Assembly (NCBI GenBank): GCA_964563795.1
Contig: CAZLYB010000004.1
Location: 57,026-121,025, forward strand
Source of the DNA: an uncultured Bacteriovoracaceae bacterium
GTDB lineage: Bacteria > Bdellovibrionota > UBA1018
Length of the DNA: 64,000 nt
Direction: 5' to 3'
Every line of letters starts with the position of its first letter. Position 1 is the stretch's first letter. Positions 1,854 through 23,315 of the stretch are shown here, piece by piece. The position numbers were made by a program, and so were the translations under genes. The notes beneath the pieces are model-generated. The model was given only the letters and a program-made list of their open reading frames with translations. It was not told the origin of the DNA and made no database searches.

Positions 1854-1924
1854 CAAGTCAAGCTGAAGTTCCCGCAGCTTTCCTGTTGCGCAAAAACGCG
1901 TCTCGTCGGTATGATCTGGGAATC

Positions 1925-2698: not shown

Positions 2699-2701
2699 TC
2701 C

Positions 2702-3670
2702 ATGGCTAAAGTGCTCGTCGTCGCTGAACACCGAAACGGTAAACTGAAAAAAACCACCTTTGAGCTCCTAAGCGCCTCGGCCGCCGCGGGCAATGAGACC
2801 CACGCCGTGCTGCTGGGGGAAGGAGTGGAAGCGCTCGCGGGCGAACTCGGACCCTACGGAGCCTCCAAAGTCCATCTAGCACAGAACGCCACTTTCAAGT
2901 TTTACACGGGCGAGGCTTATGGCGCCGCGATCCTCGATTTGATCAACTCCCTCAAGCCCGAGATCGTGCTCGCCTCGCACACGCCGACCGGCCGCGATCT
3001 GATGCCTCGGCTCGCTGCGAAGCTCAACGTCGGGCTCGCGAGCGACTGCACCCAGCTTCAGTTTCAAGGCTCGAAGATCCAAGTCAGGCGCCCCGTCTAC
3101 GCGGGCAAAGCGACGGTTGAAGTGGAATTCCTCGGCTCTGGTCCGCAGCTCGCCACGGTGCGGCCCAACGCGCTTGGAAATCCCAAGTCAGACGCCTCGA
3201 AAAAAGCGGAGATCGCCCCACTCGGAGCGAATCCTTCGGCGCTGAAAACCAAAGTTTTGGAAGTTGTCCAAGGCTCAAGTGCCCGGCCCGACGTCACCGA
3301 GGCCTCGGTCGTTATCTCAGGCGGCCGCTCGCTCAAGAACGCGGAGAACTTCAAAATTTTGGAGGAACTCGCCGATGTGCTCGGCGCCGCGGTTGGCGCC
3401 TCTCGAGCCGCTGTGGACGCAGGCTTTCGCCCGCACCGGGACCAAGTGGGGCAGACGGGAAAAGTCGTCTCGCCCTCGCTTTACATCGCCTGCGGGATCA
3501 GCGGCGCCATTCAGCACTTGGCCGGCATGCGAACTTCCAAGGTCATCGTGGCCATCAATACCGATCCTGAGGCCCCCATCTTCCAGGTCGCGGATTACGG
3601 GATCGTGGCGGATTTGTTCACGATGGTTCCCCTGCTGAAGGAAGAGTTCAAAAAAATCAAAGAAAGTTGA
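2702..3670 (+). CDS. etfA: Electron transfer flavoprotein alpha subunit
   Basis: The N-terminus [15 protein letters not shown] and a C-terminal FAD-binding region (SGGRS...[15 protein letters not shown]) identify it. It starts 4 nt after etfB. Confidence 0.9.
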
Positions 3671-3682
3671 GATGAGTCGCCG

Positions 3683-5716
3683 ATGACTTGGCAAACCTGG
3701 GCGTTCTTGGCGGTCGCATCCCTCGCGTTCGGTTACTCCAGCTATCGGCTGTCCTTGCTGCTGAAGCTCATGCGGGCGCAAAAGGGGCGCGCGCCGAAGT
3801 ACGGCGACCTCCTCAAGCGCATCGAAACGACGCTGGTGAACGTTCTGGGGCAAAAGGCCGTTCTCAAAAAGCCGGTCGCGGGCATCATGCATGCGACGAT
3901 TTTTTGGGGATTCCTCATCATCTCGGTAGGAACGCTCGAGCAGTTCGTGAGCACGATTTACGCTCCCGCGAACTTTGAGTTCATCGGCCATGGGCCTTAC
4001 CGGGCGCTCGTCGCGATCCAGGATTTTCTCACGCTCGCCGTGCTGCTCGCCGTGGCCTACGCTTTTTACAGGCGCTTAGTGGTGCGCCCCAAGGGGCTCG
4101 GCCATTCGAGCGATGCGATCATCGTGCTGACCCTCACGGGTTCGCTCATGGTTTCCATCCTGCTCATGAATGGCTTCGGAATTTTGGGCCATTCGCCTTG
4201 GTACGCGGGCGCCATGCCGGTTTCAAACGCATTGGCCGGATTGCTCGCTGGATTGGGCTTCAGCGCCGAAACCTCCACGGGGCTTCATACGCTCTTCAAA
4301 TGGGTACATATGCTGATCGTGCTGGGTTTCTCGGTCTATATCCCGAGCTCCAAGCACCTTCACATCTTAGCGGCGGGTCCCAATACCTTTTTAAAACCTC
4401 TCCATCGCGAAAAAGCGATGAGCGTCATTCCTTTTGAGGACGAATCCGTTCAGCAATACGGCGCGGCCAAAGTCACGGACCTGAGCTGGAAGGACACGCT
4501 CGATTACTACGCCTGCACCGAATGCGGGCGCTGCCAGGACCTCTGTCCCGCCTACAACACCGAGAAGCCGCTCTCGCCCAAGAAGCTCATCCTCGATCTC
4601 AAAGAAAACCTCTACCGCAACAAAGCCGCGGCCCTCGCGGGAAAATACGACGAAGTCTCGCACATCATCGATCAGAACGTCACCGAGGACGTGATCTGGG
4701 CATGCACGAGCTGCCGCGCCTGCGAAGTCGCCTGCCCCGTGTTCATCCAGCACACCGATAAGATTTACGACGCCCGCCGTAACTTGGTGCTCATGGAATC
4801 CAAGTTTCCCTCGGAAGTTCAGACCGTCTTCAAGAACATGGAAACCAACGCCACTCCTTGGGCATTCAGCGCCTCGGATCGCGCGGGTTGGGCTGAGGGG
4901 CTGAGCATCCAAACGATGGCGCAAGCCGCTGCGGCAGCGGGTGAATCCAAAGGCGGCGCCGGGGCCACTGGCGCTCCGATCGACGTGCTGCTCTGGGTGG
5001 GCTGCGCGGGCTCCTACGACGACCGCAATAAGAAGGTGCTGCGCGCGTTCGCAAGCACGCTCAACCGAGCGGGCATCAGTTTCGCGATTTTGGGCTCCGA
5101 GGAGCAGTGCACCGGCGATCCCGCGCGGCGCATCGGCAATGAGTACCTCTACCAAACGCTCGCCAAGGCGAACATCGAGACGCTCAACCGCTACGGCGTG
5201 AAACGCGTCGTCACCGCCTGCCCCCACTGCTTCAACACGATCAAGAATGAGTACAAGGATTTTGGGGGGCAGTATGAAGTGTTCCACCACTCCCAGTTCC
5301 TCGCTCAGCTCATTAAGGAAGGCCGCCTGAAACCCGCCGCGGCGACGATGAAGGATTCCGTGACTTTCCATGACAGTTGCTACTTGGGGCGATGGAACAA
5401 CATTTACGACGAACCCCGCGCGTTGATCGCATCCTCCTCAGCTCAGGCCCCCATCGAGATGAAGAGCCATCATGACCAAAGCTTCTGCTGCGGAGCGGGA
5501 GGCGGGAGGATGTGGATGGAGGAGAAAATCGGCAAGCGCGTCAACATCGCACGCACCGAGCAGGCTCTGGCGACTGGCGCCAAGGTGATCGCCTCTTCCT
5601 GCCCGTTCTGCATGACGATGCTCAACGACGGCTTAAAAGCGAAGGATCAGCAGGATCACGTGCGAGTCATGGACATCGCGGAGCTCGTCGATCAAGCGAC
5701 GGCGGGCGGCCCTTAG
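3683..5716 (+). CDS. Etf-associated membrane-bound Fe-S oxidoreductase (heterodisulfide-reductase-like, two CCG domains)
   Basis: The N-terminal region has about 5 TM helices. Two ferredoxin motifs follow (CTECGRCQDLCP and CTSCRACEVACP), then two cysteine-rich CCG-type motifs (CPHCFN, CPFCM). Its position directly after etfBA fits the EtfAB:quinone oxidoreductase family of anaerobes and deltaproteobacteria. Confidence 0.8.
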   Translation: MTWQTWAFLAVASLAFGYSSYRLSLLLKLMRAQKGRAPKYGDLLKRIETTLVNVLGQKAVLKKPVAGIMHATIFWGFLIISVGTLEQFVSTIYAPANFEFIGHGPYRALVAIQDFLTLAVLLAVAYAFYRRLVVRPKGLGHSSDAIIVLTLTGSLMVSILLMNGFGILGHSPWYAGAMPVSNALAGLLAGLGFSAETSTGLHTLFKWVHMLIVLGFSVYIPSSKHLHILAAGPNTFLKPLHREKAMSVIPFEDESVQQYGAAKVTDLSWKDTLDYYACTECGRCQDLCPAYNTEKPLSPKKLILDLKENLYRNKAAALAGKYDEVSHIIDQNVTEDVIWACTSCRACEVACPVFIQHTDKIYDARRNLVLMESKFPSEVQTVFKNMETNATPWAFSASDRAGWAEGLSIQTMAQAAAAAGESKGGAGATGAPIDVLLWVGCAGSYDDRNKKVLRAFASTLNRAGISFAILGSEEQCTGDPARRIGNEYLYQTLAKANIETLNRYGVKRVVTACPHCFNTIKNEYKDFGGQYEVFHHSQFLAQLIKEGRLKPAAATMKDSVTFHDSCYLGRWNNIYDEPRALIASSSAQAPIEMKSHHDQSFCCGAGGGRMWMEEKIGKRVNIARTEQALATGAKVIASSCPFCMTMLNDGLKAKDQQDHVRVMDIAELVDQATAGGP

Positions 5717-6309
5717 CTGGACAGCGAGCGGCACTCGCTGATCAGCGGCAGAAGCCCAGTTTTTTCCGCAGCGGACAAAGCGGCCGCTAGGATGGATTCC
5801 GTGTCTCTCTCTTTCTGGGAGTGAAGTTGGGCCTCAAGCTCAGGCCAATGATCACGAAACGCCATCTCGAATTTCTGGGAAATTTCACCGCTTTTGAATG
5901 CTTTAAACAGCGCGCAGGACTGACCTCGATCGAGGTCTCCCCCACTTCCGAATTTCAGCGTGAGATCAATTTTATCCTGAAAGAACCATGCCGTACCCGC
6001 GGTTATTTTAATCTGAAGGAGAACAGGATCGAAATCGAATTGCAGCCCTCCCTGATCAGCGATCTGGCAGAGGGATTTCTTCAATTGGCCCCTACTAAAA
6101 CCTCGAAGCGGGGTGTAGGCGTCTGATCCGAATTCGCCAGGCTCTTGAAATCCCACCGCCGCTGCGTCGGTAGATTTGAGAAGCAAAAACTGCCCAATGA
6201 TCCCTTGATACGCCCCTTTTTGATAAGCATGGATTCGACAAACCGGCGTCTGATCAGCCCGCGACTGATGATGCATTAAAACGGCGGCCACTAAAACTAG
6301 CCATTTCAT
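5713..6309 (-). CDS. Secreted hypothetical protein (paralog of 6574..7158)
   Basis: The signal peptide is MKWLVLVAAVLMHHQSRA. It shares an N-terminal motif VCRI-x-Y-Q-x-G-(x)-GY/I-x-GQF with the ORF at 6574..7158. Confidence 0.5.
   Translation of the reverse strand: MKWLVLVAAVLMHHQSRADQTPVCRIHAYQKGAYQGIIGQFLLLKSTDAAAVGFQEPGEFGSDAYTPLRGFSRGQLKKSLCQIADQGGLQFDFDPVLLQIKITAGTAWFFQDKIDLTLKFGSGGDLDRGQSCALFKAFKSGEISQKFEMAFRDHWPELEAQLHSQKERDTESILAAALSAAEKTGLLPLISECRSLSS
5722..5740 (+). terminator. Terminator-like hairpin 6 nt after the Fe-S oxidoreductase stop (CAGCGAG-cggca-CTCGCTG); it lies inside the 3' end of the convergent minus-strand gene
   Basis: A perfect 7-bp inverted repeat is seen directly in the sequence. 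No immediate U-tract follows (a T-run begins about 17 nt later). Confidence 0.3.
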
Positions 6310-6323
6310 AAAACCCGATCCGC

Positions 6324-6512
6324 TTATTTTTTGAAGTCCGGCGGCAAGAAATCTTTATGAGCCGCGATGAAACGTTTGAGCGCGGTGTTCGCGAGCTCGG
6401 ATTTGCTGAGCTTGGCGTGTTTTTCCATTTGAGCCAAGATATCGATCACCGTGGATTCAATTTCGATTTCAAGTTTGGAGGTTTTGGCCTTGATTTTATA
6501 GTCGTCTCTCAT
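6324..6512 (-). CDS. Ribbon-helix-helix (CopG/Arc/MetJ-like) small DNA-binding protein
   Basis: The 62-aa protein has a beta-strand with alternating hydrophobics (KLEIEIES), then helix A (VIDILAQMEKHAKL) and helix B (SKSELANTALKRFIAAH). The S-[KR]-SEL-x-x-x-AL-[KR] pattern is typical of RHH antitoxins and regulators. Confidence 0.45.
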   Translation of the reverse strand: MRDDYKIKAKTSKLEIEIESTVIDILAQMEKHAKLSKSELANTALKRFIAAHKDFLPPDFKK

Positions 6513-6573
6513 GAGGGGTTTATACCAGCAAAATCAATGAATGGGGAGTTGGATCTATCGCTCCTAAAGCTGA

Positions 6574-7158
6574 TCACTGCCCACTTTTTTGCTTCAGTAG
6601 CACCGTATTGACCATCCAAGCCAGGGCGTTGGCGTTTAAAAGCGAGCCGACTTGGTTTTGATACGCGCGGATGCTGGAATCGAATTGATCTTGGGAAATA
6701 TTCAGAGTGATCGTCGTCGACTCCTGAAAAATCTTCCTGCACAGGCCGTTTGAAGCCTCCGCTGAGAGCGAGATAGAGTCAGAGGGGATTACATATCCTT
6801 CCTTCGCGATATGACTCACTTTAAACGAAAAAAAAGTCGGCCGGGAACCCTTGGAATTGCTCACATACTCGATGAGGGAAGACGCTCTTCCGCTGCTCTT
6901 CACAGCTCCTGGTGCGCTCTCATAGAGCTTTCTAAGAGCGTCCGCGTTATCTTTGAGACCATGATGTTGACCCGTTTTGAATTCGTCCCGGTTTTGATAT
7001 CGAATGACCCCATGGTCATTAAAAAACTGCCCCACATAACCCGTCGCTGAGCCCTGTTGATACGTGATTCGGCAAACTTCCGTCTCGGCGGAAGCCGCCT
7101 CAAAACCGGAGAGCAAACCCAAAACTAAAACCATCGCTGAAACGCTGTTGCGAAACAT
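6574..7158 (-). CDS. Secreted hypothetical protein (paralog of 5713..6309)
   Basis: It has a signal peptide (MFRNSVSAMVLVLGLLSGFEAASA) and the shared motif EVCRITYQQGSATGYVGQFF. Confidence 0.5.
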   Translation of the reverse strand: MFRNSVSAMVLVLGLLSGFEAASAETEVCRITYQQGSATGYVGQFFNDHGVIRYQNRDEFKTGQHHGLKDNADALRKLYESAPGAVKSSGRASSLIEYVSNSKGSRPTFFSFKVSHIAKEGYVIPSDSISLSAEASNGLCRKIFQESTTITLNISQDQFDSSIRAYQNQVGSLLNANALAWMVNTVLLKQKSGQ

Positions 7159-7218
7159 CTTTACTTCCTCCGCTTAAAAAATGCTGCTTTTCGCGTATCT
7201 CTTGACCCCGAGGCTTTG

Positions 7219-7773
7219 TCAATAGGCCGATCTCCACAACCGCGCCGCCTTGGAAAGACTTAGGAGCGCCGATAAAAGCTGCGAGGGCCGACTTTGCCAG
7301 GCTTCAATGAATTTTCGAGAGGTCCCCATGGAGGGGTCCCACTGAACTTGGAGCGGGAGGGACTCTCGATTCATCAAGCGCTTGCATTCTGGATTTTGGA
7401 AATAAAGTCGCCAATGGAAATCCTGGAAAATATCGAAAAAATGATTTTGAAATTCGGGAGATCCTGGCGTTTCAAAAACGTAAAAATCAAGTTCTTGATG
7501 CGTGGAATAATAAAAGCCCAGCGATTTTGAGAAATCACGCCCCCCTGCCAATGACCCGAGAAATGCGCGGAATCGCTCTTCACCGCGATCTGGCTTGATT
7601 TCGCGAGCGCCGCTCCGTGTCCGCGCCCTGACTTCGTTCTCGCCCTCGAAGAGAACCTCCCCGATGCCCCAATCCACACTGCCTCTCCGGGCGCGAACGG
7701 CGCAGCCCAGCTCAAGAGCATGGACAGGCACCTCCATGGCTAAGATTAAAAATAAAAAAATGAAAGCCTTCAT
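7219..7773 (-). CDS. Secreted hypothetical protein
   Basis: The start was refined to MKAFIFLFLILAMEVPVHA, a classic signal peptide; the longer ORF extends to 7803. No recognisable domain was found. Confidence 0.45.
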   Translation of the reverse strand: MKAFIFLFLILAMEVPVHALELGCAVRARRGSVDWGIGEVLFEGENEVRARTRSGAREIKPDRGEERFRAFLGSLAGGRDFSKSLGFYYSTHQELDFYVFETPGSPEFQNHFFDIFQDFHWRLYFQNPECKRLMNRESLPLQVQWDPSMGTSRKFIEAWQSRPSQLLSALLSLSKAARLWRSAY

Positions 7774-7830
7774 GCTGCATCCCCCCGGGATATTGGCTCT
7801 CAAGAACTCGGCTTGCGCAAGTTTTTTGTG

Positions 7831-8730
7831 TTAGCCCCTGGACCGCCCCCGAATGAGGTCCTTCACCACGCCGTACATCGCCTGAGGCAAGCCTTCGAGC
7901 TCGGCGATTTCCTTGATCGCTCCGTGCCCTCGGCTCGCGAGCTCCCGGCAGAGCGACAGGCTCGCGCGATCGCGGCCCATCTTCATCACCACGAGGTGAT
8001 CGAAGCGCGGGGCGAGGTAAGCGGGATCTCGGCCCGCCGTGTATTTTCCGTCGGTGAGCAGGAGCGTCGACGTGCCCGCTCGCTCGATCAATCGGAGCGC
8101 GGCCTGAAGCCCTTCCTCCAAATGAGTGTACCCTTGGGCAGGAACATCGAGGAACCGCTCCACGAGCTGCTCGATCGTGATCGTCTCGCGGGGTGATTTG
8201 AGCACGCGGGCTTCATTCTCGAAAGCGACGATGCCGACCGGGCTCTCTGGAAACTGCAGCAGCACCACCGCGAGCGCGACCGCCGTCAGCGCGAGCTTCT
8301 CGCCCGTCATCGAAAGGCTCGTGTCCACGCTGAGCACGATCGGGGTTTGCGGCCTCGTCCTGAAACTCACCCAAAGCTCAGGCGCGGCTCCCTTGCCTTG
8401 ACTCAATGCACGGACCCAGAGCGGCGACTCTTCGAGCGTTGCGTCCCAATCCTCTTCTATGTGCGTCGCGCTCTCGGGAACTTCCTCAAACGGAGCAGTG
8501 CCCTCGCGGCTCACATGCACCACCGAACCCAGCACTTCACGCGCCCGCTCCAGCACCGCTTGCGCCGAGACTTCCCGGATGCGCCTCAAGAGCGGGCTCC
8601 ATGCGTAACGCGCCTTCAACTCATGATAACGGATCGCAATGTCCCAGGAACTCGCGCCCCAGAGCTCCTGCTCCGCGAGCGAAGCGGCTTGATCCGCCTC
8701 AGAAATGAGGCTCAATCCTTTTTCATCCAA
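7831..8730 (-). CDS. von Willebrand factor A (VWA) domain protein, CoxE/ViaA-like partner of a MoxR ATPase
   Basis: A MIDAS motif DTSLSMTG (DxSxS) is followed by a hydrophobic beta-strand (LAVVLLQF) and later TD/G motifs. It lies 77 nt downstream of the MoxR-type AAA+ gene. Confidence 0.75.
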   Translation of the reverse strand: MDEKGLSLISEADQAASLAEQELWGASSWDIAIRYHELKARYAWSPLLRRIREVSAQAVLERAREVLGSVVHVSREGTAPFEEVPESATHIEEDWDATLEESPLWVRALSQGKGAAPELWVSFRTRPQTPIVLSVDTSLSMTGEKLALTAVALAVVLLQFPESPVGIVAFENEARVLKSPRETITIEQLVERFLDVPAQGYTHLEEGLQAALRLIERAGTSTLLLTDGKYTAGRDPAYLAPRFDHLVVMKMGRDRASLSLCRELASRGHGAIKEIAELEGLPQAMYGVVKDLIRGRSRG

Positions 8731-8807: not shown

Positions 8808-9707
8808 TCAGATTTTTTTTTTTGAAGCGGCGGGATCCCCCTGAAGCGCCGCCAATGCCAATTCGCGCAGCAAAGCCTTCCGCTCAGCCTCGAGCCCCAG
8901 ATCAGATTCCGAGTCCCGCTCGAATTCAATGCGCGTGGGAAGCGCCATGAAAACCGCCTGCGTGAACGCTTCTTCGAGGGGCTGTCCCCGCGAAAGCAGC
9001 GACTTCGCGATTTCAGCGATGCTGAGCGCTGCCCGGATCGAGGCGCCCCGCTTGATTCGCGGGTGATCGCGCGTCAAGCGCGCCAGATCCACCGAAGCGT
9101 CGATCAATCTCTCTGTCTCCGAGGAGAATCCCGCCGATTTTTTTGATTTTGCGGGAGCCTGAATCTGAGAGGAAACGATCGCCCGTTCCTCCTCGCGCGA
9201 TTGATAATCCAGCAGGATGAGCTCAAAGCGATCCAAAATCGCCTCGCTCAAATGGGAGGTCGCGACGAATTCCTTGGGGTTTTGCGTCGCTATCACGAGG
9301 AAACTCGGCTTCGCGCGGACTGTTCCCAAACGGGGAATCGCGATCACCCGCTCATCGATCGCCGGCAACAAGACGTTCTGAACGCCTTCCGGCAGCCGAT
9401 TCAGCTCGTTGATGAAGAGCACTCCGCCCTGCTTCATCGCCGCCGTCAGCGGCCCATCCACGAAGGAACGGACGCCGTAACCCCGTTTTAAAACCGCCGG
9501 GGGATCGAACCATCCGCTCAGCTTCTGCTCGCTGTAGCGGCTATCCCCATCCACCCGAAACACGGGGCGCTTCAACTCCTCTACGATCGAGAGAGCGAGC
9601 CTCGTCTTTCCGACCCCCACGGGACCCTCGAGCAATACGTTACGCTGAGCGCTCAAGCACGCCCGGACCCACTCCGATTCCCGCTGCCTGCCGATCAATG
9701 CGCTCAT
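8808..9707 (-). CDS. MoxR/CbbQ/NorQ-family AAA+ ATPase (AAA_5)
   Basis: Walker A is LLEGPVGVGKT and Walker B is VLFINELNR. The sensor and lid regions (ATQNP...LDRF) match the MoxR family. Its ATG overlaps the kamE stop (ATGA). Confidence 0.8.
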   Translation of the reverse strand: MSALIGRQRESEWVRACLSAQRNVLLEGPVGVGKTRLALSIVEELKRPVFRVDGDSRYSEQKLSGWFDPPAVLKRGYGVRSFVDGPLTAAMKQGGVLFINELNRLPEGVQNVLLPAIDERVIAIPRLGTVRAKPSFLVIATQNPKEFVATSHLSEAILDRFELILLDYQSREEERAIVSSQIQAPAKSKKSAGFSSETERLIDASVDLARLTRDHPRIKRGASIRAALSIAEIAKSLLSRGQPLEEAFTQAVFMALPTRIEFERDSESDLGLEAERKALLRELALAALQGDPAASKKKI

Positions 9708-10501
9708 GACTTCCCTCGCTTGGTTTTTTTCGCGGGTTTCCGCTTTTTCTTGAGGACTTCCTCGACAATGGCGCTCGCCACTTCAGAGGGCTTGGTCCCC
9801 ACGCCGAATCCCGCGTCATAGCCGCACTCAAGCGCGAGCGCATGCGTCACCCGCGGCCCTCCCGCGATGCAGATCAACTGATCCCGCATCCCGAGCTTCT
9901 CGGCGCGCTGGATGAGGTCTTTTAAATCACGAACGTGTATCCCATGCTGGGTGACGACCTTCGAGATCAAAATCGCGTCCGCCTTCAATTCTTTCGCGCG
10001 CTTCAAGAGCTCCTCGTTCAGGACCTGCGCCCCTAAGTTGCGCGCGTCGAACCCTTCATAGCGCTCCAATCCGTAATCTCCGGCGAAACCCTTCATATTG
10101 ATGATGGCGTCGATCCCCACGGTGTGGGCGTCGTAGCCGGTGCAAGCGCCCAGGACGACGAGCTTGCGGCCAATCTTCTCCCGGATCAAGGCGTCAATCT
10201 CTTCGCGCGAGCGCTTGGGCGCTTCGACTTCGATGGTCTTGATCCGCGTGAAATCCACGCTGTGCTTGAAGTTGGCGTAGATGACGAAAAAAGCGAACCC
10301 CTCGGCCGCCTTCTCCATGGTCGCCACTTTGATTTGGTCGTAGCCCATCTTGGAAACCAGCTGCATTGCCGCTTCCCGCGCGCGAGCGCTGGGCTCGACC
10401 GGCAATGTAAACGCCAGCTGGACAGTCCCGTCGTTCATGATGTCGCCGTAGGGCTTGAGCTTCTTGAGGTCGGCCTTTTGGGTTTTTGATGGCGCGCTCA
10501 T
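9704..10501 (-). CDS. kamE: Lysine 5,6-aminomutase beta subunit (B12-binding)
   Basis: The start was refined to MSAPSKTQKADLKKLKPYGDIMNDGTVQLAFTLP, which is the KamE N-terminal signature. The B12-binding Rossmann region is VVLGACTGYDAHTVGIDAI. The longer ORF in the track has a non-homologous, Arg/Gly-rich N-terminal extension. Its ATG overlaps the kamD stop (ATGA). Confidence 0.85.
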   Translation of the reverse strand: MSAPSKTQKADLKKLKPYGDIMNDGTVQLAFTLPVEPSARAREAAMQLVSKMGYDQIKVATMEKAAEGFAFFVIYANFKHSVDFTRIKTIEVEAPKRSREEIDALIREKIGRKLVVLGACTGYDAHTVGIDAIINMKGFAGDYGLERYEGFDARNLGAQVLNEELLKRAKELKADAILISKVVTQHGIHVRDLKDLIQRAEKLGMRDQLICIAGGPRVTHALALECGYDAGFGVGTKPSEVASAIVEEVLKKKRKPAKKTKRGKS

Positions 10502-12066
10502 AAGAGATCGAAAAACGGGTTGAGATAATCCTGGGCTTTGGGAATCACGCCTTCCAACCCTTTCCCCCCCGTCTCGGCGCGGCTCACTTCCGCGAAGGCT
10601 TTCTCCTCGATCGCCTTGAAGATCCCCTTGGATCGAACCATCTTCAGATGCTCGTGTGTATCCTTGAGCACTTTCTCGGCCCAACCGGAGATGATTCCCC
10701 CGCGCTTGAATTCCACGTCCGACCCCAAGTCCTTCGCGCCCTCGAAGATGAGCTTCGCGTTCTGAATGCTCATCCAACGGTCCTGCAACAGCGGGGTGTG
10801 CATCGCTTCAGTAGGCATCCCCAGCAATTGTATGGTCTGACCGGTGAAAACGCCAACCAGGTTGAACATCGCGTCCATGAGATGGCTATAGAAGATATCG
10901 CCCCTTTTATGGCGGGTGGGCGGCATGAACTTGATGGGGGACTGCGGAAAAATATCGCGCGTCATCTGAGCGCGCGCGATCTCGAGCAGGAACACGTTCG
11001 GGTGCGTGGGATCCATCTCCTGGGCATGCCCCAAACCCATGAGCTCCTCGGTCATCCGCGCGTTCAGAGCCAGTCGCTCGTTGATGAATTGCGAGGCCAG
11101 GACTTGATGGCCGTTCTCCACGGCGTCAGCGGTCGTGAGGTAATTGTCCTCCCCCGTGTGGATGACGATCCGGGAGAGCGCGATGATCCTCCTTGAAAAA
11201 TGCTGATCAACCCAGGTGCGGCGCATATTGATGTCGCGGAACAAAATCCCGTACATCGAATCGTTCAGGAGGAAGTCCAGCCGTTCCATCGCCCCCAAAG
11301 CCGCGATCTCCGGCATGCAGAGCCCAGAGCAATAATTCGTCAGGCGAATGTAGCGACCGAGGCGCCTGGATTCCTCGTCCAAGGCCTCGCGCATAATTTT
11401 GAAGTTTTCCTGGGTGGCGTAAGTTCCCCCAAAGCCTTCCGTCGTCGCGCCGTGCGGGACGAAATCCAGAAGGGATTGCGCAGTGCTTCGAATCACCGCG
11501 ATCGCATCCGCGCCCGCTTGAGCGGCCGCTTTCGCCTGCGTCACATCCTCGAAAATATTGCCGGTGGCGACGATCACGTAAAGGACTGGTCCACCCTTGC
11601 CGGTCGGATCGAAACGATCGCCCAGTTCTTTTCTGAGGGAATCCCTTTTTTCGCGCGCGTGCACCAGGCTTTTAACCGCTCTCTCGCAGAGCTCGTGGGC
11701 TTTCGCCTGAATCACGCCTTTTTCTTGAAGAGGCGCTGCCATCAAGTTAATCTTCCCCAAGGCCGCCGCGTCGGCCAGCTCCTGCGCCGTCATGCGATGA
11801 TGGATCATCGCGCTCACGAAAGGCCTGAGCACCCCGTGATTCAGCTCCCCTGCCTGCCTCAGCTTTTCAACGATCAAGTTCGCTTGGGGGAAGTGCTGCC
11901 CCCCCTTTTCGCGAACCGCGCCGCTCACTCCCAAAAGCCGCAAGGTCGCGCGCTCGATCGCGACGGTCGTGTTGGATTCGATGAGGGCCGAAATGGGGCG
12001 CGTCACTTCCTTCGCCAACGCCCTGCATTCTTGAACTAGAACCGCGTCCAATGCCAAATGCGCCAA
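10498..12066 (-). CDS. kamD: Lysine 5,6-aminomutase alpha subunit
   Basis: The 522-aa length and TIM-barrel subunit fit. The N-terminus (TTVAIERATLRLLGVSGAV) and overall similarity match KamD/OraE-type PLP/B12 aminomutase large subunits. It is adjacent to kamE. Confidence 0.85.
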   Translation of the reverse strand: MAHLALDAVLVQECRALAKEVTRPISALIESNTTVAIERATLRLLGVSGAVREKGGQHFPQANLIVEKLRQAGELNHGVLRPFVSAMIHHRMTAQELADAAALGKINLMAAPLQEKGVIQAKAHELCERAVKSLVHAREKRDSLRKELGDRFDPTGKGGPVLYVIVATGNIFEDVTQAKAAAQAGADAIAVIRSTAQSLLDFVPHGATTEGFGGTYATQENFKIMREALDEESRRLGRYIRLTNYCSGLCMPEIAALGAMERLDFLLNDSMYGILFRDINMRRTWVDQHFSRRIIALSRIVIHTGEDNYLTTADAVENGHQVLASQFINERLALNARMTEELMGLGHAQEMDPTHPNVFLLEIARAQMTRDIFPQSPIKFMPPTRHKRGDIFYSHLMDAMFNLVGVFTGQTIQLLGMPTEAMHTPLLQDRWMSIQNAKLIFEGAKDLGSDVEFKRGGIISGWAEKVLKDTHEHLKMVRSKGIFKAIEEKAFAEVSRAETGGKGLEGVIPKAQDYLNPFFDLL

Positions 12067-12081
12067 GTCGTCCCTCGCTGT

Positions 12082-13128
12082 TCAGGAGTAGTGCTTGAGA
12101 AAAAGCTGCCGAAGCTCGTCGCTCTCGCGGAGCAGGTTCAGCGCGAGCTCCGCGTGCCCGTCAGCGTAGCCGTTTCCGATCCTGAGATCAATGTCGCAGC
12201 CCACCCCCTCCGCGCCCAGGGCAGCTCGAGTGAATTGGGTCGCCATGCTGAAAAAATAGACGATTCCCCGGCTGCGGCACGCCAGGATCGAAGCCATCTC
12301 AGTCCCGGGGAGATTGGTCACATTGATGACCAGATTCCCCATGTAGCCGCGGGTGGTGTTCCAAACGCGATCCATCACCTCCATGGCGTTTCTCGCGTCA
12401 GCTTGGATCACTTCATCCACGAAGGAGAGGTTGGAAAGCCGATCCAGCGCCTCGCGCGAAAAATCGATGGCGATGGTGCGAACCCCGGATTTTTTCTTCG
12501 CTTCGTAAAGGCAGAGGACCCCCGATTTCCCGCCTCCGCCGATGACGATCACGGTCTGACCTTCCTGGGTCAGGCGCTGCGTTTGCGCGGGAGCTCCCGC
12601 CACGTCCAGGACCGCCAGCGATACGCGTTCGGGAAGATCATCCGGAAGGCGGGCGAAGACTCCCGAGGCGAAAAGGACGGCATGGCCTTCGATGTCCACG
12701 CGCTCCGTTGAAAGATGGATTTTTTTGATCTTCTTGATTTTCAGCGGCGTCAGCGAAAGCGAGACCATCGTCGCGATTCGATCGCCGATCCGAACCGGTT
12801 TTTGATCGAAGGGAAATGACGGTCCCAACTCGGCGACGGTCCCGATCAGCATGCCCCCGGAACCCGTGACCGGGTTATGCATCTTGCCCTGCTCATTCAC
12901 GAGCTGCTCGATATGAGCCGCGATCCGAACCGGATCATCCTGGCAGTGCTCCCGGATCTGCCGAAAACTCGCCGAATCGATGTTGAGGCTTTCAACGTCG
13001 ATGAGCATTTCATCCTGAGCCAGGGTGAGCGAGGAGTCCAATGCGGCCGCTTGCTGGGGAAGCACGCCTTTCGGCTTCAAGACTCTCTGCAACCCAAAAG
13101 GATCCGCCGCGCGATAAGTGCTAACCAT
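12082..13128 (-). CDS. kdd: Putative L-erythro-3,5-diaminohexanoate dehydrogenase (Kdd-like NAD(P) dehydrogenase)
   Basis: The Rossmann motif is VIVIGGGGKSGVLCLYEA. About 348 aa after refining the start to MVSTYRA. Its position directly upstream of kamDE matches lysine-fermentation operons. Family assignment rests on context and length. Confidence 0.55.
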   Translation of the reverse strand: MVSTYRAADPFGLQRVLKPKGVLPQQAAALDSSLTLAQDEMLIDVESLNIDSASFRQIREHCQDDPVRIAAHIEQLVNEQGKMHNPVTGSGGMLIGTVAELGPSFPFDQKPVRIGDRIATMVSLSLTPLKIKKIKKIHLSTERVDIEGHAVLFASGVFARLPDDLPERVSLAVLDVAGAPAQTQRLTQEGQTVIVIGGGGKSGVLCLYEAKKKSGVRTIAIDFSREALDRLSNLSFVDEVIQADARNAMEVMDRVWNTTRGYMGNLVINVTNLPGTEMASILACRSRGIVYFFSMATQFTRAALGAEGVGCDIDLRIGNGYADGHAELALNLLRESDELRQLFLKHYS

Positions 13129-14218
13129 TCCGTTTTTTCCGAGCTTTTTCGACCCTCTCTTCAGCCATGTGGTCCGCGACCTCAGAAGAGGGTTTTTGAG
13201 CGCGCTCGGAACGCTCCAGGATTTCCGTAATCGTCTTTTCGATTTTAGAAACATGCTCGTAAGCTTGCGTTTTTTGATACGATTTCGCCCCGCTCGCGGG
13301 ATGCTCGTAATAAATATTGATCAGGCCCCCGGCGTTGAGCACGTAATCCGGGGCGTAGCAGATGCCACGCTTCAGGAGTTCATAACCATCTTCTGGCGTC
13401 GCGAGCTGATTGTTCGCCCCTCCGGCGATCACCTTGGCGCGAATGCGGGGCAGAGTCTTGGAATTGATGCTCGCTCCCAGCGCGCAGGGCGAAAAAACGT
13501 CGCAAGAAACGTCATAAATCGCCTCGGGCTTCACCACTTCGATCGAAGGGTATTTTTCCTTGGCCCGCTTCACCATTTCAGCGTCAATGTCACAAGCGGT
13601 GATCACCGCTCCCTCGCGGGCCAAATGCTCCAATAAATAATAGGCGACGCTCCCCAAACCTTGAACGGCGACCCGAACCCCTGAGAGGGTGCGCTTCCCG
13701 TTCACCTTTTGCGCGCAAGCGAGCAGACCGTGATACACGCCGTAAGCGGTCGCGGGCGAGGGATCTCCGCTCGACTCGCTCAGGCCCTCAATCCCGAGGA
13801 CGTGAGTCGTCGCTTTCTTCACTTCCTTCAAATCCTCGGAGCCGATCCCCACGTCTTTCGCCGTGATATAGGTGCCTCCCAACGTTTCAACGAACCGGCC
13901 AAAGCGCTGGAGCATGGCGGGATTCTTTTTCGTCTTGGGATCGCCGATCAGAACGGACTTTCCCCCGCCCCAATTCAGTCCCGCGAGCGCGGCTTTGTAA
14001 GTCATTCCCTTAGAGAGGCGCAGCACATCCGTCAAAGCATCGCCCTCTGACGCGTAGTCATACATGCGGCAACCGCCCGTCGCGGCTCCCAATGCGGTCG
14101 AATGTACCGCGATGATCGCTTTCAGCCCGGTCGAACGATCCTGGCAATAAACGACTTGCTCAAAATCTTCGTTTTTGAGGCGCTCGAAAAGAGGCGCCAT
14201 AGAAGGTGCTGGATTCAT
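13121..14218 (-). CDS. Glu/Leu/Phe/Val dehydrogenase family protein (leucine/phenylalanine dehydrogenase-like)
   Basis: The catalytic motif LNWGGGKSVLIGDP is present, with a C-terminal NAD Rossmann (VAVQGLGSVAYYL). The length is 365 aa. It overlaps the kdd start by 8 nt. Confidence 0.8.
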   Translation of the reverse strand: MNPAPSMAPLFERLKNEDFEQVVYCQDRSTGLKAIIAVHSTALGAATGGCRMYDYASEGDALTDVLRLSKGMTYKAALAGLNWGGGKSVLIGDPKTKKNPAMLQRFGRFVETLGGTYITAKDVGIGSEDLKEVKKATTHVLGIEGLSESSGDPSPATAYGVYHGLLACAQKVNGKRTLSGVRVAVQGLGSVAYYLLEHLAREGAVITACDIDAEMVKRAKEKYPSIEVVKPEAIYDVSCDVFSPCALGASINSKTLPRIRAKVIAGGANNQLATPEDGYELLKRGICYAPDYVLNAGGLINIYYEHPASGAKSYQKTQAYEHVSKIEKTITEILERSERAQKPSSEVADHMAEERVEKARKKRNG

Positions 14219-14300
14219 GAGACTTTACCTTGGGTTACCATGTTTAAAATCCATAGCAGCGCCATGGCCTAGAATCAAGGCTTACCGGCATTTCCACCGG

Positions 14301-14330
14301 TTCGACACGAGGCGAAAACCGGCTTATAAT
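14301..14330 (+). promoter_or_regulatory. Sigma70-type promoter for the lipoprotein gene at 14358 (TTCGAC-18 nt-TATAAT)
   Basis: The sequence ttcgacacgaggcgaaaaccggctTATAAT sits about 28 nt upstream of the ATG, in the divergent intergenic region 14219..14357. Confidence 0.4.
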
Positions 14331-14357
14331 GATAGGCGGGGGTTCGTCGTTTTATCC

Positions 14358-15602: not shown

Positions 15603-15821
15603 GCCCCAAAAACGTCTAATCTTTGGCCACCCGTCATCGACCACCGGCCCGAGCCTCCCCCTGAGGATCAGCTCTAATATTATTAAATATTCGTTATTTT
15701 TATCTATTTTTAGATGAACGGGATGGCCCGGCCCTTGCTTTAATCCAACCCCAGAATGACACCACCCCTGCGCGGGTGCCTGTTGATGTGGAACGAGCTG
15801 AGTGAAGCGAGGAATAAAGTC

Positions 15822-17528
15822 ATGGCGAACGTTAAACGCGGTTTTTACTTTTTCATGGGCATGGCATTGGTCATGAGCCTGATTCCCTGGATGGCCTTGG
15901 CGGATGGCGGGATTCCGCTGAAACCCGAGGAACTCAAATACGCGATCTCCGACTTGCAGTTCGTCACGGATGCCGCCCAAAAAAACCAGGTGCGGCTCGA
16001 CGGCCTCATCTTCAGCGAATGCGGCGCTGCCGCGAAGAGCCTCGACGTCCGATGGACTCGCATCGATAAATCCACCCTCTCACCCATCGTCTTGGACCCC
16101 CAGAAAACATTCTGGGCCTGCCAAAAAAAATTCAGAGAGAAAAAAGAATCCTGTGAAAATCAAAATTGCGTCGCGCTCTCGAGCCTGGGCGCCAGCCAAT
16201 TCGAGCACTCGATGCTCGGCACCGAGGAACGGTCGCTGCAAGTCACCCTCGCCTCGAGCAACCCGAATCTCTTGAATTCGGGCTATCAAAAAAGTTCCGC
16301 AATCCGGCCCGTGACGATCGAATGGAAACCGGAAAAAGACGGCAAAGAAAAAGATCCGCGCGACGAAAGAGTGGCGAAAATCAAGGAAAAGGCGGCGAAG
16401 GCTCCCTTTACCGCCGCGGGCTTCAGAGCAGTGCAGGACGCGGGCGAAGAACTGGTCAAGATGAAAGTCATCAATTCTCAAGCCGCCCGCTACGCTTCCC
16501 ATCGCTTTCTCATCTTGGCTTTGAAATCCATTGAGGAAGGCAAATGCCAGAAGAACGATTTCCCCAGAGTGTTGGATCTATTGAAAGCGGCCAAGGATTT
16601 CTATCGGCCTTCTTCGATCAGCAGAAAGCGCACGTCCTCGGAAGATGAGGAGCGCCTGGGCCCCACCGAATCCGAGCTCACGGCGCTCGGCGAAAGCTAC
16701 ATCGAGGCGTGCACCATCGGAGAAAACGCGACGAGCAGAGGCTTGGAGCAAGCCTCCAAGCATTATCAAAGCCTGCTCGCGGTCTGTTCCACCCGCTGCG
16801 AGGACCGCGAAGAGCTAAAAGCTCTGGTGGGCACTTCGCGGTTTCAATCCCGACTCGTAAAATTGGATGAAATCATCGCGTCCGGGCAGCCCGCGAGCGG
16901 GTTGGTTTACATGAACACGAGCCGCAACCTTTACCGGGAGCTCTCCAATTCTTTCAGGCCATGCAGCAACCCCACCGCAGCTTCGTGGGGAAACGGCACT
17001 TGCAATCGGCTCGCGGAAAGCATGAATCAACTTTCCTTGGTTGAAGAGAAGCACCGTGAATATTCGCGCAAACTCGCCCAAGAAAAGCAAATCGCCGCTC
17101 AGCAAGCGCGATTGGACCGGCAGCAAGGGTCTCTCTCGAGCCGTCGCCAGGCAGGACTCCTTTTGCCGGGCGCAAGCTCAGGGCTGAACTCTTACCGATC
17201 CGCATCGGGAATGCGGGACCAGCGGCTCGCCCAGATGCAGCTGAGCGGACGCGCCGACTCGCTCGCGCCCCTTTCGACGCGCAACATGCGACTTGATCCC
17301 GCCGCGTCGGATCCTTACCGAATCCTGGTGCCGGGGATCGACAGCGAATACAGCCTTTCGCTCAATCGATTCAGCGGCCACAACCACTTGCCGGGAATCA
17401 CGGAGCGCTTTCAAGCGATGGACCGCAGCGCTTGGACCGCGAACGCTGTCTCCTCAGAGAAAGAGGACGAGGATTTGAGCACTCTGTTCGATGCTCCGAA
17501 CGGCGCGGGAAAGATCTTCTCGAACTGA
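15822..17528 (+). CDS. Secreted hypothetical protein (about 568 aa), Ser/Gln-rich C-terminal half
   Basis: The start was refined to MANVKRGFYFFMGMALVMSLIPWMALADG (signal peptide), preceded by a GAGGA ribosome-binding site. It contains several Cys pairs. No known domain was found. Confidence 0.5.
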   Translation: MANVKRGFYFFMGMALVMSLIPWMALADGGIPLKPEELKYAISDLQFVTDAAQKNQVRLDGLIFSECGAAAKSLDVRWTRIDKSTLSPIVLDPQKTFWACQKKFREKKESCENQNCVALSSLGASQFEHSMLGTEERSLQVTLASSNPNLLNSGYQKSSAIRPVTIEWKPEKDGKEKDPRDERVAKIKEKAAKAPFTAAGFRAVQDAGEELVKMKVINSQAARYASHRFLILALKSIEEGKCQKNDFPRVLDLLKAAKDFYRPSSISRKRTSSEDEERLGPTESELTALGESYIEACTIGENATSRGLEQASKHYQSLLAVCSTRCEDREELKALVGTSRFQSRLVKLDEIIASGQPASGLVYMNTSRNLYRELSNSFRPCSNPTAASWGNGTCNRLAESMNQLSLVEEKHREYSRKLAQEKQIAAQQARLDRQQGSLSSRRQAGLLLPGASSGLNSYRSASGMRDQRLAQMQLSGRADSLAPLSTRNMRLDPAASDPYRILVPGIDSEYSLSLNRFSGHNHLPGITERFQAMDRSAWTANAVSSEKEDEDLSTLFDAPNGAGKIFSN

Positions 17529-17529
17529 G

Positions 17530-19893
17530 TCAGCGGCGTTTTCGCCTGCCGGGGCTCGAGGCCCTTCTCTCGTCTGATTTGAAGTACTGCTCAATTTCCG
17601 AAGCGACGCCAGGCAATGTTTGAGCGAGAACCGGAAGCGGCGACACATTGGGGAACCCCTGTCGGAACTCCAGCCCAGGATCTCCATGGGTTTGAGGCCC
17701 GTAAAAGGTGCCTCCCATGTAAAAAAGAATCTGGGTGTGGATCGGCGTTCGAATGGCGATCGCCTGAAATCCAGAATTAAACCAGCCTTTAGCGTAATCA
17801 AATGGGAGCGCCGAATGGCCGGCGTTGAACACCTGGTCATACCAACCTGCCACATGAGTATGCCCGTTCGCCTCCGCACCAACGGCCGCGCGCCGATTCA
17901 AGGGAGAAACCGGCTTCCCGAAAACTCCGCCCATATGGCCATGCGAGATATTCAAGTTCGAAACGGAAAAGCGGTCATTCGGGCCGAGAATCTTGAAGTG
18001 CTCATTGTAGCTGACGCCGATGTCTTTTCTTAAGTACTCCTCAAAGGGATTCTTCCCTTCATTGGCGTAATTTTTCATGCGCGTGAGCGCGGCGGCGTTC
18101 CAATGGTTTTCAAGGTATTTTCCCGTCCTCAAAAGCCGCATCACGCGATCGTACCCATGATTGGAATACATATCGACGATGTAAGGTACGTAGCCCCGAG
18201 TCCTCTGCATCTGGTAGAGCAGGTCCTTCTGCATCGTCAGCCCGTACTTCATTTGCAAGTCGTAATCCCGTTCCAAGGGCTGCCGGATCAGGCTCGCGTT
18301 CGCCGAGAAATCGCCTTCGATGTGCCTCCCAAAAAATGAGAGGTCGAAATGATCATTGAAAACGAAGCTGAGAATGTCGACCGGCTTCCCATCAGTCCGC
18401 TTGAGCGCGGTCTCGGGATGGATGAACTGACGGTAAAAATTCTCGTAAAACGCGGGATCGTAGTTCGGCGAATGGGAGTCCCCGAAAACGACCGCCAGGA
18501 TGGGCAGATCCCTGACCTTCCCGTCAATTCCATAATGCTTATTGAGGTCCGAGAATCCGGGAGGGTATTCAATCGGCTCGCCCTTTTCGTTAGTGATCGT
18601 GAAGGATTCCTCGTTGAACGGCATTTCCCGCGGGCGATAGCGGGTTTCGAGCTTGTAGCGGAGATCCTCGGGAAGTCCCGCTATCTTCTCGAGCCTCATG
18701 GCGGCGATGCGCTGCATCTCATTCTGCAGCGCGCTGATCCTCGCTCCGATCGCGCGGCTCGCGAAATTCATGCCCAACGCGTTGATCGCGCCCGTGGTGA
18801 TGATCCCCGAGGGATACTTCGTGCTCGACGCCACGGGCACGAACAGGGAATGAGGGTGGACCAGCACCGAGAGGCCGCCCGGATCCGTGACTTTCACGAC
18901 TCCCGTTTGAGGCACGAGCGCGCGGTTGGGCAAAGGGATGCGATTGACCGAAAGCGACTGCCCGAACCCTCCCTGGAGAAAAAGAGTCTGGGGGCAAACG
19001 AAGCGATGCTGATCCGGGGCGCTGAAAACGTCCGGTAGGCCGCTTGACAGCCCATAAGCGGGAAAAGTAACCAAGGGCATCGCGCTCCCCTCGGCGCGGG
19101 ATGTAAAGTTCTGAAAAGTCATCATCGCATCGATGATCCCGGTTTGAACGGGGATTCCAGAGATGTAACCCGCCACCACCAGGGACTGACTCTTGCTCAC
19201 ATCGGCGATGAGCTGAGCGGCGATCTCATCATTGAAAGCCATGGTGTCCGGATACTGATTGAGGATGGAAGCGAGATCCTTCCACATCCCCGCATTCCCC
19301 TTGAATCCTTCATAGTAATCGCGAAAAAGGCCAAATCTTTTGCTGAAAATACGGATGAACCCGTCACGCTCATTTTTTTGGGTGCTGATCCCCAGGAACT
19401 CGGCGAACTCATTCAGCGTGGGGGGGTAACGGTTTTTGATCTTGGCCCATTCCCCCAGTTTTTTATAAAAAGCCCCGAGAATCGACTCGATCTGCTCAGC
19501 GCTGAAAATGGAATCCTGGATGGCCGCGATCCTCTCGGCGCTGTACTGCGCGGCTGCATTGACGTCCGGAGCGCCTTTTTTCCCGTAGATGGCGGGAATC
19601 TCGGCCCAAACCTCGCCCCAGCTCCCGAAAATCTGCTTGAGAGCGACCGGGGTGATGCCCAGCTCACGCTGCTCTTTTTCAGTGGGGAGCCTGAAATTCT
19701 CGAGGATGAATTTCAAGAAAGCCTGGACTTCTTTTTCCGTAGGCTTTTGAATCGCCTCCGTGGCTGCGGAGGCTTGGATGAAGGAGCCGCTCGCTGCAGC
19801 CGCGATGAGCTGCTCCTTGCAAGTTTTCTTTGCGGTCCCCGCATCGGCGAAGCTGGCAAAAAGCAGCGTGAGCAGCAGGAATGAACGCATCAT
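17530..19893 (-). CDS. Secreted protein with C-terminal calcineurin-like metallophosphoesterase domain
   Basis: The signal peptide is MMRSFLLLTLLFASFADA. Phosphoesterase motifs are VVFGDSHSP (GDxH), GHMGGVFGKP and NGHTHVAGW (GHxH). Its ATG overlaps the upstream gene stop (ATGA). Confidence 0.6.
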   Translation of the reverse strand: MMRSFLLLTLLFASFADAGTAKKTCKEQLIAAAASGSFIQASAATEAIQKPTEKEVQAFLKFILENFRLPTEKEQRELGITPVALKQIFGSWGEVWAEIPAIYGKKGAPDVNAAAQYSAERIAAIQDSIFSAEQIESILGAFYKKLGEWAKIKNRYPPTLNEFAEFLGISTQKNERDGFIRIFSKRFGLFRDYYEGFKGNAGMWKDLASILNQYPDTMAFNDEIAAQLIADVSKSQSLVVAGYISGIPVQTGIIDAMMTFQNFTSRAEGSAMPLVTFPAYGLSSGLPDVFSAPDQHRFVCPQTLFLQGGFGQSLSVNRIPLPNRALVPQTGVVKVTDPGGLSVLVHPHSLFVPVASSTKYPSGIITTGAINALGMNFASRAIGARISALQNEMQRIAAMRLEKIAGLPEDLRYKLETRYRPREMPFNEESFTITNEKGEPIEYPPGFSDLNKHYGIDGKVRDLPILAVVFGDSHSPNYDPAFYENFYRQFIHPETALKRTDGKPVDILSFVFNDHFDLSFFGRHIEGDFSANASLIRQPLERDYDLQMKYGLTMQKDLLYQMQRTRGYVPYIVDMYSNHGYDRVMRLLRTGKYLENHWNAAALTRMKNYANEGKNPFEEYLRKDIGVSYNEHFKILGPNDRFSVSNLNISHGHMGGVFGKPVSPLNRRAAVGAEANGHTHVAGWYDQVFNAGHSALPFDYAKGWFNSGFQAIAIRTPIHTQILFYMGGTFYGPQTHGDPGLEFRQGFPNVSPLPVLAQTLPGVASEIEQYFKSDERRASSPGRRKRR

Positions 19894-21299: not shown

Positions 21300-21440
21300 C
21301 AGGATTTTTGAAAAAGCAAAATTTAATTTGTTAAGGCCCGGGTTTTCGCCTGAAACGTCCCGAAAGCCGCATGGTAGGCGTCGACTCAGCGCGAGAAACC
21401 CGCTGCTAAAAGCGGCTGAATCAACTCAGGAATTATAATT

Positions 21441-23312: not shown

Positions 23313-23315
23313 AAA

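Follow-up and report, generated by a model that had tools for sequence, protein, structure and literature searches.

A window of 64,000 nucleotides from an uncultured Bacteriovoracaceae bacterium of the phylum Bdellovibrionota (contig CAZLYB010000004.1, positions 57,026 to 121,025) was found to carry, on its minus strand between positions 7831 and 14218, six closely packed genes. They code for a dehydrogenase of the Glu/Leu/Phe/Val family (ELFV), L-erythro-3,5-diaminohexanoate dehydrogenase (Kdd), the alpha and beta subunits of lysine 5,6-aminomutase (KamD and KamE), a MoxR-class AAA+ ATPase (AAA) and a VWA-domain partner protein (VWA). Our data favour, with moderate confidence, a Bdellovibrionota variant of the lysine 3,5-diaminohexanoate pathway that would be split between this operon and genes located elsewhere, and that would be co-transcribed with an independent dehydrogenase related to leucine dehydrogenase (Bcd, or LeuDH) and with a MoxR/VWA chaperone. 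We regard the operon as a lineage-specific variant of a known pathway and not as evidence for a new diamino-acid route, which had been proposed in an earlier reading of the same DNA (hereafter the original prediction). Fermentation of lysine to butyrate by the B12-dependent 3,5-diaminohexanoate pathway is regarded as typical of strict anaerobes. Here, the core of this pathway is conserved, apparently by purifying selection, in a large group of predators that are flagellated and presumably aerobic, beside respiratory electron transfer flavoprotein (Etf) genes and without the usual entry, exit and reactivase genes.

The original prediction had listed four genes, from the ELFV dehydrogenase to KamE, as an incomplete module of the lysine-fermentation type with a Leu/Phe-type ELFV gene in first position. 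This description was supported: the order and the minus-strand location of the four genes were as stated, and the products of kdd, kamD and kamE all pass the cut-offs of NCBIfam equivalog models. Kdd (12082-13128, 348 aa) scored 255.8 with model NF052381 (cut-off 200) and aligned over its full length, with 335 bits, to the solved 3,5-diaminohexanoate dehydrogenase 7DL3. KamD (10498-12066) reached 740 with NF052384 (cut-off 600) and matched both Pfam Lys-AminoMut_A (E = 1e-222) and the alpha subunits of lysine 5,6-aminomutase in the PDB (9Q1A/8T0V/1XRS; 578 bits). KamE (9704-10501, 265 aa) scored 344 with NF052385 (cut-off 280) and 273 bits with the beta subunits in the PDB; it contains the Pfam OAM_dimer and B12-binding domains and has conserved the cobalamin motif DxHxxG (DAHTVG) as well as the downstream lysine that binds pyridoxal phosphate (PLP). 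Judged by these sequence criteria, KamDE is shown to be a predicted intact lysine 5,6-aminomutase dependent on adenosylcobalamin and PLP, and Kdd a predicted 3,5-diaminohexanoate dehydrogenase, so that together they would convert L-beta-lysine to 3,5-diaminohexanoate and the latter to 3-keto-5-aminohexanoate.

The substrate assignment was examined on both sides. Kdd has retained the equivalent of residue E310 (motif AALGAEGV), which is conserved in crown and basal Bdellovibrionota enzymes and in canonical ones; 3,5-diaminohexanoate dehydrogenase is otherwise strict for its substrate, and the E310G variant widens its scope (PMC9902596). As for the aminomutase, the D-ornithine 4,5-aminomutase pathway (oraSE-ord-ortAB) relies on an enzyme of the same B12/PLP aminomutase superfamily, with OAM_dimer and B12-binding domains in its small subunit. 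KamD and KamE, which pass the lysine 5,6-aminomutase models, nevertheless scored only 117 and 135 bits with the OraE model NF040743 (cut-off 800), and the D-ornithine route that the original prediction had considered was rejected on this basis.

The arrangement of the genes indicates that all six probably form one transcribed operon. The start of kdd lies over the stop of the ELFV gene (8-nt overlap), the kamD/kamE and kamE/AAA junctions each consist of an ATGA overlap, and gaps of 15 nt and 77 nt separate kdd from kamD and the AAA gene from the VWA gene, respectively. Such overlapping or tight junctions suggest a single transcript with translational coupling, and the gene calls of relatives reproduce the same structure. 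The operon thus runs past position 9704, where the original prediction had ended it, and also includes the genes of the AAA+ ATPase (8808-9707) and of the VWA protein (7831-8730), the latter being the final operon gene in the lineage of the window. At the other end, the ELFV gene (13121-14218) may alternatively start at position 14200, which gives a product of 359 aa identical to the database gene call P0001. The divergent intergenic region 5' of it (14219-14357) is presumed, from its position alone, to hold the promoter. Only weak sigma-70-like matches were found upstream of the ELFV gene, and the scans for sigma-70 promoters and terminators did not exceed shuffled expectation. Neither the window nor three related loci contained an Rfam family or riboswitch, a sensitive scan 5' of the ELFV gene detected none either, and 69 orthologous upstream regions gave no sigma-54 motif.

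The distribution of the cluster was analysed by scanning one genome per species with KamD, which yielded 80 loci, about 62 of the Bdellovibrionota type (KamD 56-76% identical) and about 18 of the canonical type from Firmicutes and Bacteroidota. About 35 further Bdellovibrionota-type clusters came from metagenomes scanned with the AAA protein. The order [ELFV]-Kdd-KamD-KamE-AAA-VWA is the rule in these roughly 100 Bdellovibrionota loci, which makes the cluster common and typical of the phylum and not, as the original prediction had put it, unusual in a predator-like genome. In about 80 loci, the AAA gene comes immediately after kamE. The one exception is locus L064 (12441-15175), in which genes for an NDH-2-like pyridine-nucleotide-disulphide oxidoreductase and for a lyase of the class-II fumarase/aspartase type are inserted between the two. 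In the crown clade, to which the window belongs, Kdd, KamD and KamE are full-length and 65-76% identical across more than 50 loci and have kept their cofactor and substrate residues. This conservation, together with the maintenance of the coupled junctions, suggests that the three genes are under purifying selection. Nothing relevant was found in the literature on this cluster in Bdellovibrio or on MoxR proteins associated with aminomutases.

The absence of kamA, kce and kal from the window, noted by the original prediction, was borne out by a Pfam scan and by tblastn. No Radical_SAM or LAM_C domain (KamA) and no BKACE domain (Kce) was detected by Pfam among the open reading frames (ORFs) of at least 100 aa, which were chosen by a greedy non-overlapping pick that left out some small or overlapped ORFs. 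A tblastn search of the whole window with KamA, Kal, Kce, KamB, KamC, thiolase, CoA-transferase and acyl-CoA dehydrogenase references (NCBIfam-verified proteins of a canonical Bacteroidales operon, plus two further references) gave nothing below E = 0.1. Since the operon is flanked in the window by 7.8 kb on its downstream side and by 50 kb on its upstream side, kamA, kce and kal do not lie just outside it as further members of the same operon, a possibility that the original prediction had allowed for. Likewise, neither KamA and Kal nor KamB and KamC were found within 10 kb on either side of any of the roughly 100 Bdellovibrionota clusters, whereas all four are as a rule found in canonical loci.

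The situation of kce is different in basal lineages. In basal subclades of the KamD neighbour-joining tree, a BKACE protein encoded after the VWA gene passes the Kce model NF052387 (391.5 and 382.3, cut-off 382). Its gene lies directly 3' of the VWA gene in 13 dereplicated basal lineages, and the six Bdellovibrionota Kce proteins whose context was examined all belong to a seven-gene ELFV-kdd-kamDE-AAA-VWA-kce operon. The presence of Kce in basal operons points to canonical 3,5-diaminohexanoate chemistry. Its inferred place in the ancestral operon and the conserved E310 equivalent of Kdd both point to the canonical intermediates (beta-lysine, 3,5-diaminohexanoate and 3-keto-5-aminohexanoate). 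An outlier BKACE protein, P0180, was discarded owing to its unrelated transporter context. In one basal subclade (L057-L064; e.g. L060, 15016-16233), kce is directly followed by a gene for threonine ammonia-lyase (PALP and one ACT domain; TIGR01127 score of 424, cut-off 379), so that this operon groups a LeuDH-like enzyme, lysine genes and a threonine deaminase in one transcript.

LeuDH/Bcd (EC 1.4.1.9) is the first enzyme of branched-chain amino-acid catabolism in Bacillus and Geobacillus. The ELFV protein (365 aa), encoded by the first gene of the operon, belongs to the same two-domain fold family, with the Pfam domains ELFV_dehydrog_N and ELFV_dehydrog (E about 1e-25), and is about 55% identical to the Geobacillus LeuDH 6ACF (359 bits); its match to the tryptophan dehydrogenase 5B37 of the PDB scored 273 bits. 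The best NCBIfam match, tryptophan dehydrogenase ScyB (Trp_DH_ScyB, NF035922), was rejected with 353.5 bits for a cut-off of 600. Following the residue roles reported for LeuDH (PMC8766677, PMC2723916), the catalytic residues K80 and D115 and the carboxylate-binding residues K68 and N261, identical to those of LeuDH, were found to be invariant in 154 ELFV orthologues. Because both the catalytic and the alpha-carboxylate residues are invariant, the protein is probably an L-alpha-amino-acid dehydrogenase.

Unlike these residues, the side-chain pocket differs from that of LeuDH at five positions. Leu40 is replaced by Thr or Val (Thr in the window), Glu114 by an invariant Lys, Val291 by Leu, Val294 by Ile and Ala295 by Tyr, the last within a LINxY motif that is also found in tryptophan dehydrogenase. 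The comparison of active-site residues with LeuDH, suggested by the original prediction, therefore gave catalytic residues that are kept and a Glu114 that has become Lys: with this substitution, and in a pocket holding no acidic residue, the enzyme appears ill suited to accommodate the second ammonium group of a diamino acid, and a diamino substrate is disfavoured. A further difference from LeuDH/Bcd is the location of the gene, with lysine genes and not in a bkd operon. The closest ELFV homologues (61-67% identity) were found in Bdellovibrionota metagenome-assembled genomes, and an exact match to the protein of the window was obtained only in a Logan contig of 3.6 kb. Bcd/LeuDH orthologues are reported to be common in Bdellovibrionota (PMC12181280), and a LeuDH homologue of B. 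bacteriovorus reduces trimethylpyruvate and 2-oxo-4-methylpentanoate (PMC8042219); cluster membership gave no link of orthology between this tested enzyme (WP_088565218.1) and the ELFV protein of the window.

The original prediction had also named chance co-location of the ELFV gene as a possible objection. The gene is, however, found immediately 5' of kdd in 44 related loci (about 32-40 lineages once these are dereplicated at 97% KamD identity), and its adjacency to kdd is therefore far beyond chance. It is absent from 25 loci (about 18-22 lineages after dereplication) in which kdd-kamDE is intact, 1.3 kb or more of upstream sequence is visible and a divergent gene abuts kdd. Such loci are dispersed over the crown of the KamD tree, many of them being sister to loci that contain the ELFV gene, which suggests that it was lost repeatedly. 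In addition, four lineages (L004/L005, L101, L107 and L156) have kept ELFV-AAA-VWA with kdd-kamDE cleanly missing; they occupy at least three separate positions in the AAA tree, and their ELFV proteins show the same pocket signature as that of the window. Taken together, the two kinds of loci suggest that ELFV and kdd-kamDE are each able to exist alone. As a side observation on gene calling in this G+C-rich DNA, the longest ORF is sometimes the antisense of the true gene: at 37257-38795 (+), an ORF of 512 aa without matches lies over an M20 gene (37209-38696, -). The same artefact concealed the ELFV gene in several relatives until tblastn was applied.

The canonical lysine operon of anaerobes has the order kal-kce-kdd-kamA-kamB-kamC-kamD-kamE-atoDA-thl (Fusobacterium, Clostridium, Porphyromonas, Bacteroidales type), and its hosts differ from the flagellated, presumably aerobic predators among the Bdellovibrionota. 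The cluster described here resembles it by orthologous KamD (51-56% identical), KamE and Kdd, which fall into the same NCBIfam equivalogs and share cofactor motifs and the E310 equivalent, and basal Bdellovibrionota also have Kce. It differs by the lack of kamA, kal, kamB/kamC and the genes for CoA-transferase, thiolase and butyryl-CoA dehydrogenase, as well as of kce in the clade of the window, by the ELFV gene at its head and by the MoxR AAA+/VWA pair after kamE. Partial-looking clusters can nevertheless represent complete pathways, as is illustrated by Candidatus Cloacamonas acidaminovorans and a Bacteroidetes genome, both of which lack kal and process 3-aminobutyryl-CoA with the class-III aminotransferase Kat instead (PMC3149608). 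In contrast with this Kat variant, no Kat-type gene was identified in or next to the operon of the window, and kamA, present in the Kat organisms, was found neither in the window nor around the related clusters.

In the scenario that we favour, the ancestral Bdellovibrionota operon would also have held kce, which would have left the cluster in the clade of the window. With acetyl-CoA as co-substrate, basal Kce would split the keto acid into acetoacetate and 3-aminobutyryl-CoA. The enzymes for the entry into the pathway (lysine 2,3-aminomutase) and for the deamination of 3-aminobutyryl-CoA (Kal or a Kat-type transaminase) would be encoded elsewhere in the genome or be replaced by non-orthologous ones, the replacement of kal by Kat providing a precedent. 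The ELFV protein would be an L-alpha-amino-acid dehydrogenase of the Bcd/LeuDH family, of a subtype specific to the phylum, acting on neutral amino acids, probably branched-chain or similar ones. It would be co-expressed with the lysine genes in an amino-acid-catabolic neighbourhood that includes Ast-like genes, Etf and an Fe-S oxidoreductase, which would fit predators fed on the amino acids of their prey, and would thus represent a genetically separable module and not the definer of a new diamino-acid route. The MoxR AAA+/VWA pair, co-transcribed with kamE, would act as a remodelling chaperone.

A number of observations weigh against this scenario. At the entry, kamA adjoins kamDE in 13 of the 17 canonical and other loci, and its absence near the Bdellovibrionota clusters stands out; a KamA search seeded with a sister-lineage protein was uninformative, returning proteins of Myxococcota and others and no recognisable one from Bdellovibrionota. 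At the exit, kce is absent from the cluster in all 56 crown-clade loci with enough flank, no Kce of crown-clade type was present among the best 120 homologues, and the crown clade shows no visible way to dispose of 3-keto-5-aminohexanoate. The ELFV gene, for its part, is coupled to kdd by the overlapping start and stays at the head of the operon down to 56% KamD identity. Its product has retained A113 and a largely hydrophobic side-chain pocket, which is nevertheless unlike those of characterised LeuDHs, and its Lys114 is rare, with 9 occurrences among 150 diverse family representatives as against 98 for Glu114. Finally, ELFV is present in 13 of 13 dereplicated lineages with kce in the operon as compared with 19 of 37 without it (Fisher p about 0.002, in a test that is uncorrected for phylogeny and rests on about two kce-loss events). 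Such co-retention hints at a functional tie between ELFV and the complete pathway.

Some of these observations would also be expected of a route independent of KamA, in which KamDE would convert D- or L-lysine to 2,5-diaminohexanoate, and the Kdd-like and ELFV enzymes would then oxidatively remove both amino groups, leaving kamA, kce and kal unneeded. Lysine 5,6-aminomutase accepts D-lysine, and the absence of kamA and kal around the clusters, the loss of kce in the clade of the window and a head dehydrogenase translationally coupled to kdd would all be in keeping with such a route. We consider it quite unlikely, since basal operons carry an equivalog-passing Kce, a beta-keto-acid cleavage enzyme that would find no substrate in it, and Kdd combines the E310 equivalent with full-length similarity to a substrate-strict enzyme (PMC9902596). 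The ELFV pocket, with its Lys114 and no acidic residue, argues in the same direction, as does the separability of the two parts: about 18 of 50 dereplicated lineages have an intact kdd-kamDE but no ELFV, and in four lineages ELFV survives without these genes. The same evidence, together with the scores of KamD and KamE in the lysine 5,6-aminomutase models, speaks against the different diamino-acid substrate of the original prediction. Alternatively, the cluster in the clade of the window might be a decaying remnant that no longer supports the pathway after the loss of kce. The absence of kce from the crown-clade clusters and of a crown-type Kce from the top homologues, and the ongoing loss of ELFV and, more rarely, of kdd-kamDE could be taken in this sense; the full-length and well conserved Kdd, KamD and KamE of the crown clade, with their key residues and coupled junctions, make it highly improbable.

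Another explanation gives ELFV a dedicated role downstream of Kce. A Kat-type beta-transaminase would transfer the amino group of 3-aminobutyryl-CoA to a 2-oxo acid, and ELFV would regenerate this acceptor with release of ammonia and NADH, the two enzymes thereby replacing Kal. The retention of ELFV in every kce-bearing lineage and its loss in about half of the others would be accounted for, Kal was seen near no Bdellovibrionota cluster and has been replaced by a class-III aminotransferase elsewhere (PMC3149608), and an enzyme of this class is encoded in the conserved Ast-like cluster nearby. However, the operon itself contains no aminotransferase gene, and the neighbouring one sits with AstA, AstD and M20 genes, its best models being acetyl- and succinyl-ornithine transaminases, all below their cut-offs. 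ELFV moreover persists in lineages that have lost kdd-kamDE, and the correlation with kce is subject to the phylogenetic limits given above. This explanation therefore appears unlikely. The split 3,5-diaminohexanoate pathway remains the preferred reading, and if the missing genes simply lie elsewhere in the genome, it would be an ordinary split pathway. How the pathway is fed and drained would show how these predators use the lysine of their prey. Possible outcomes include a replacement of Kal or Kce, or a new class of substrates for enzymes of the LeuDH type, which are of value as biocatalysts.

The AAA protein (Pfam AAA_5, 87.8 bits) and the VWA protein (Pfam VWA_2 and VWA; VWA_2, 39.7 bits) are encoded as a pair in all relatives examined. 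The best non-midasin PDB matches of the former were NorQ (55 bits) and CbbQ (45 bits), and its relatives comprise CbbQ, NorQ, GvpN and midasin modules. It reached none of the named equivalogs, with scores of 89.9 for GvpN (cut-off 266.8), 59 for MadB (475) and 26.5 for CobS (558). The combination of an AAA_5 ATPase and an adjacent VWA protein, encoded beside a cofactor-dependent enzyme, recalls the MoxR-VWA pairs CbbQ/CbbO (Rubisco activase), NorQ/NorD and CobS/CobT. CbbQ/CbbO and NorQ/NorD remodel enzyme active sites, and the Bdellovibrionota pair might similarly be an ATP-dependent reactivase or cofactor chaperone of KamDE that has taken over from the MutS-like KamC and from KamB. We put this forward tentatively, as an addition to the preferred reading. 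Fourteen of the 17 canonical loci carry KamB and KamC, and no Bdellovibrionota locus does. In the latter, the pair occupies their place in the operon, follows kamE (with the ATGA overlap in the window) and lies between kamE and kce in basal lineages; homologues of the pair also follow a gene for a B12-binding radical-SAM protein in two other lineages (L146/L131 and L165/L166). On the other hand, the pair is unrelated in sequence to KamB and KamC and is intact beside ELFV in the four lineages without kdd-kamDE, and its largest homologue group (52-56% identity) stands beside genes for a histidine kinase, a pyruvoyl arginine decarboxylase and a deoxyhypusine-synthase-like protein, with no B12 enzyme in view.

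If the more demanding roles were combined, the operon, with or without kce, would form a self-contained aerobic lysine route needing neither a clustered KamA nor Kal. The Lys114-type ELFV would have a dedicated role in it, e.g. regenerating the amino acceptor for the deamination of 3-aminobutyryl-CoA or replacing this step, and the MoxR/VWA pair would be a new reactivase in place of KamBC. We hold this combination to be improbable. Whether MoxR/VWA pairs serve cobalamin enzymes is a question that this operon would test.

Homologues of the AAA+/VWA pair outside Bdellovibrionota were noted in L146 (990-5391), where, as in L131, a Nudix gene lies between, and in L165 (2234-5853). Members of the larger homologue group (L124, 7684-15229) are often AAA-VWA fusions, and their flanks also include a class-III aminotransferase gene. 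These homologues may have a cobalamin-related role.

Downstream of the operon, the window contains genes for diaminopimelate decarboxylase (LysA), EtfB and EtfA and a CCG/4Fe-4S oxidoreductase; flagellar genes were also found in the window. In this region (474-5716), lysA (TIGR01048 score of 465, cut-off 298) lies about 6 kb from the lysine-catabolic operon, and in relatives (L004, 13352-21056) it is joined by dapA, dapB and an aminotransferase gene. The lysA set and the lysine-breakdown operon are separated only by etfBA and the oxidoreductase gene, and genes for making and breaking lysine are thus syntenic across the phylum. Between lysA and the operon, the VWA gene is followed on its own strand by three ORFs of about 195 aa (5713-7803) whose N-termini resemble signal peptides; two of them are weak paralogues (32% identity over 66 aa). 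None of the three was retained as an operon member, since they have no family matches and a position that is not conserved in relatives.

Upstream, an Ast-like cluster (34636-40156) codes for the class-III aminotransferase (487 aa), the M20 deacylase, a succinyltransferase resembling AstA and an aldehyde dehydrogenase resembling AstD. The cluster showed no AstB, none of its NCBIfam scores reaches an Ast equivalog cut-off, and it is syntenic with the lysine operon in most relatives. It may represent an ornithine-type or other variant of the succinyltransferase pathway. The region between the two clusters (15756-34191) holds large ORFs without Pfam match (590, 801, 469, 560, 624, 1478, 403 and 273 aa) and a gene for an AAA protein of 869 aa; its G+C content falls to 43-49% at 30-34 kb as compared with about 56% elsewhere. 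The region could be an acquired island or encode a set of secreted proteins specific to predators.

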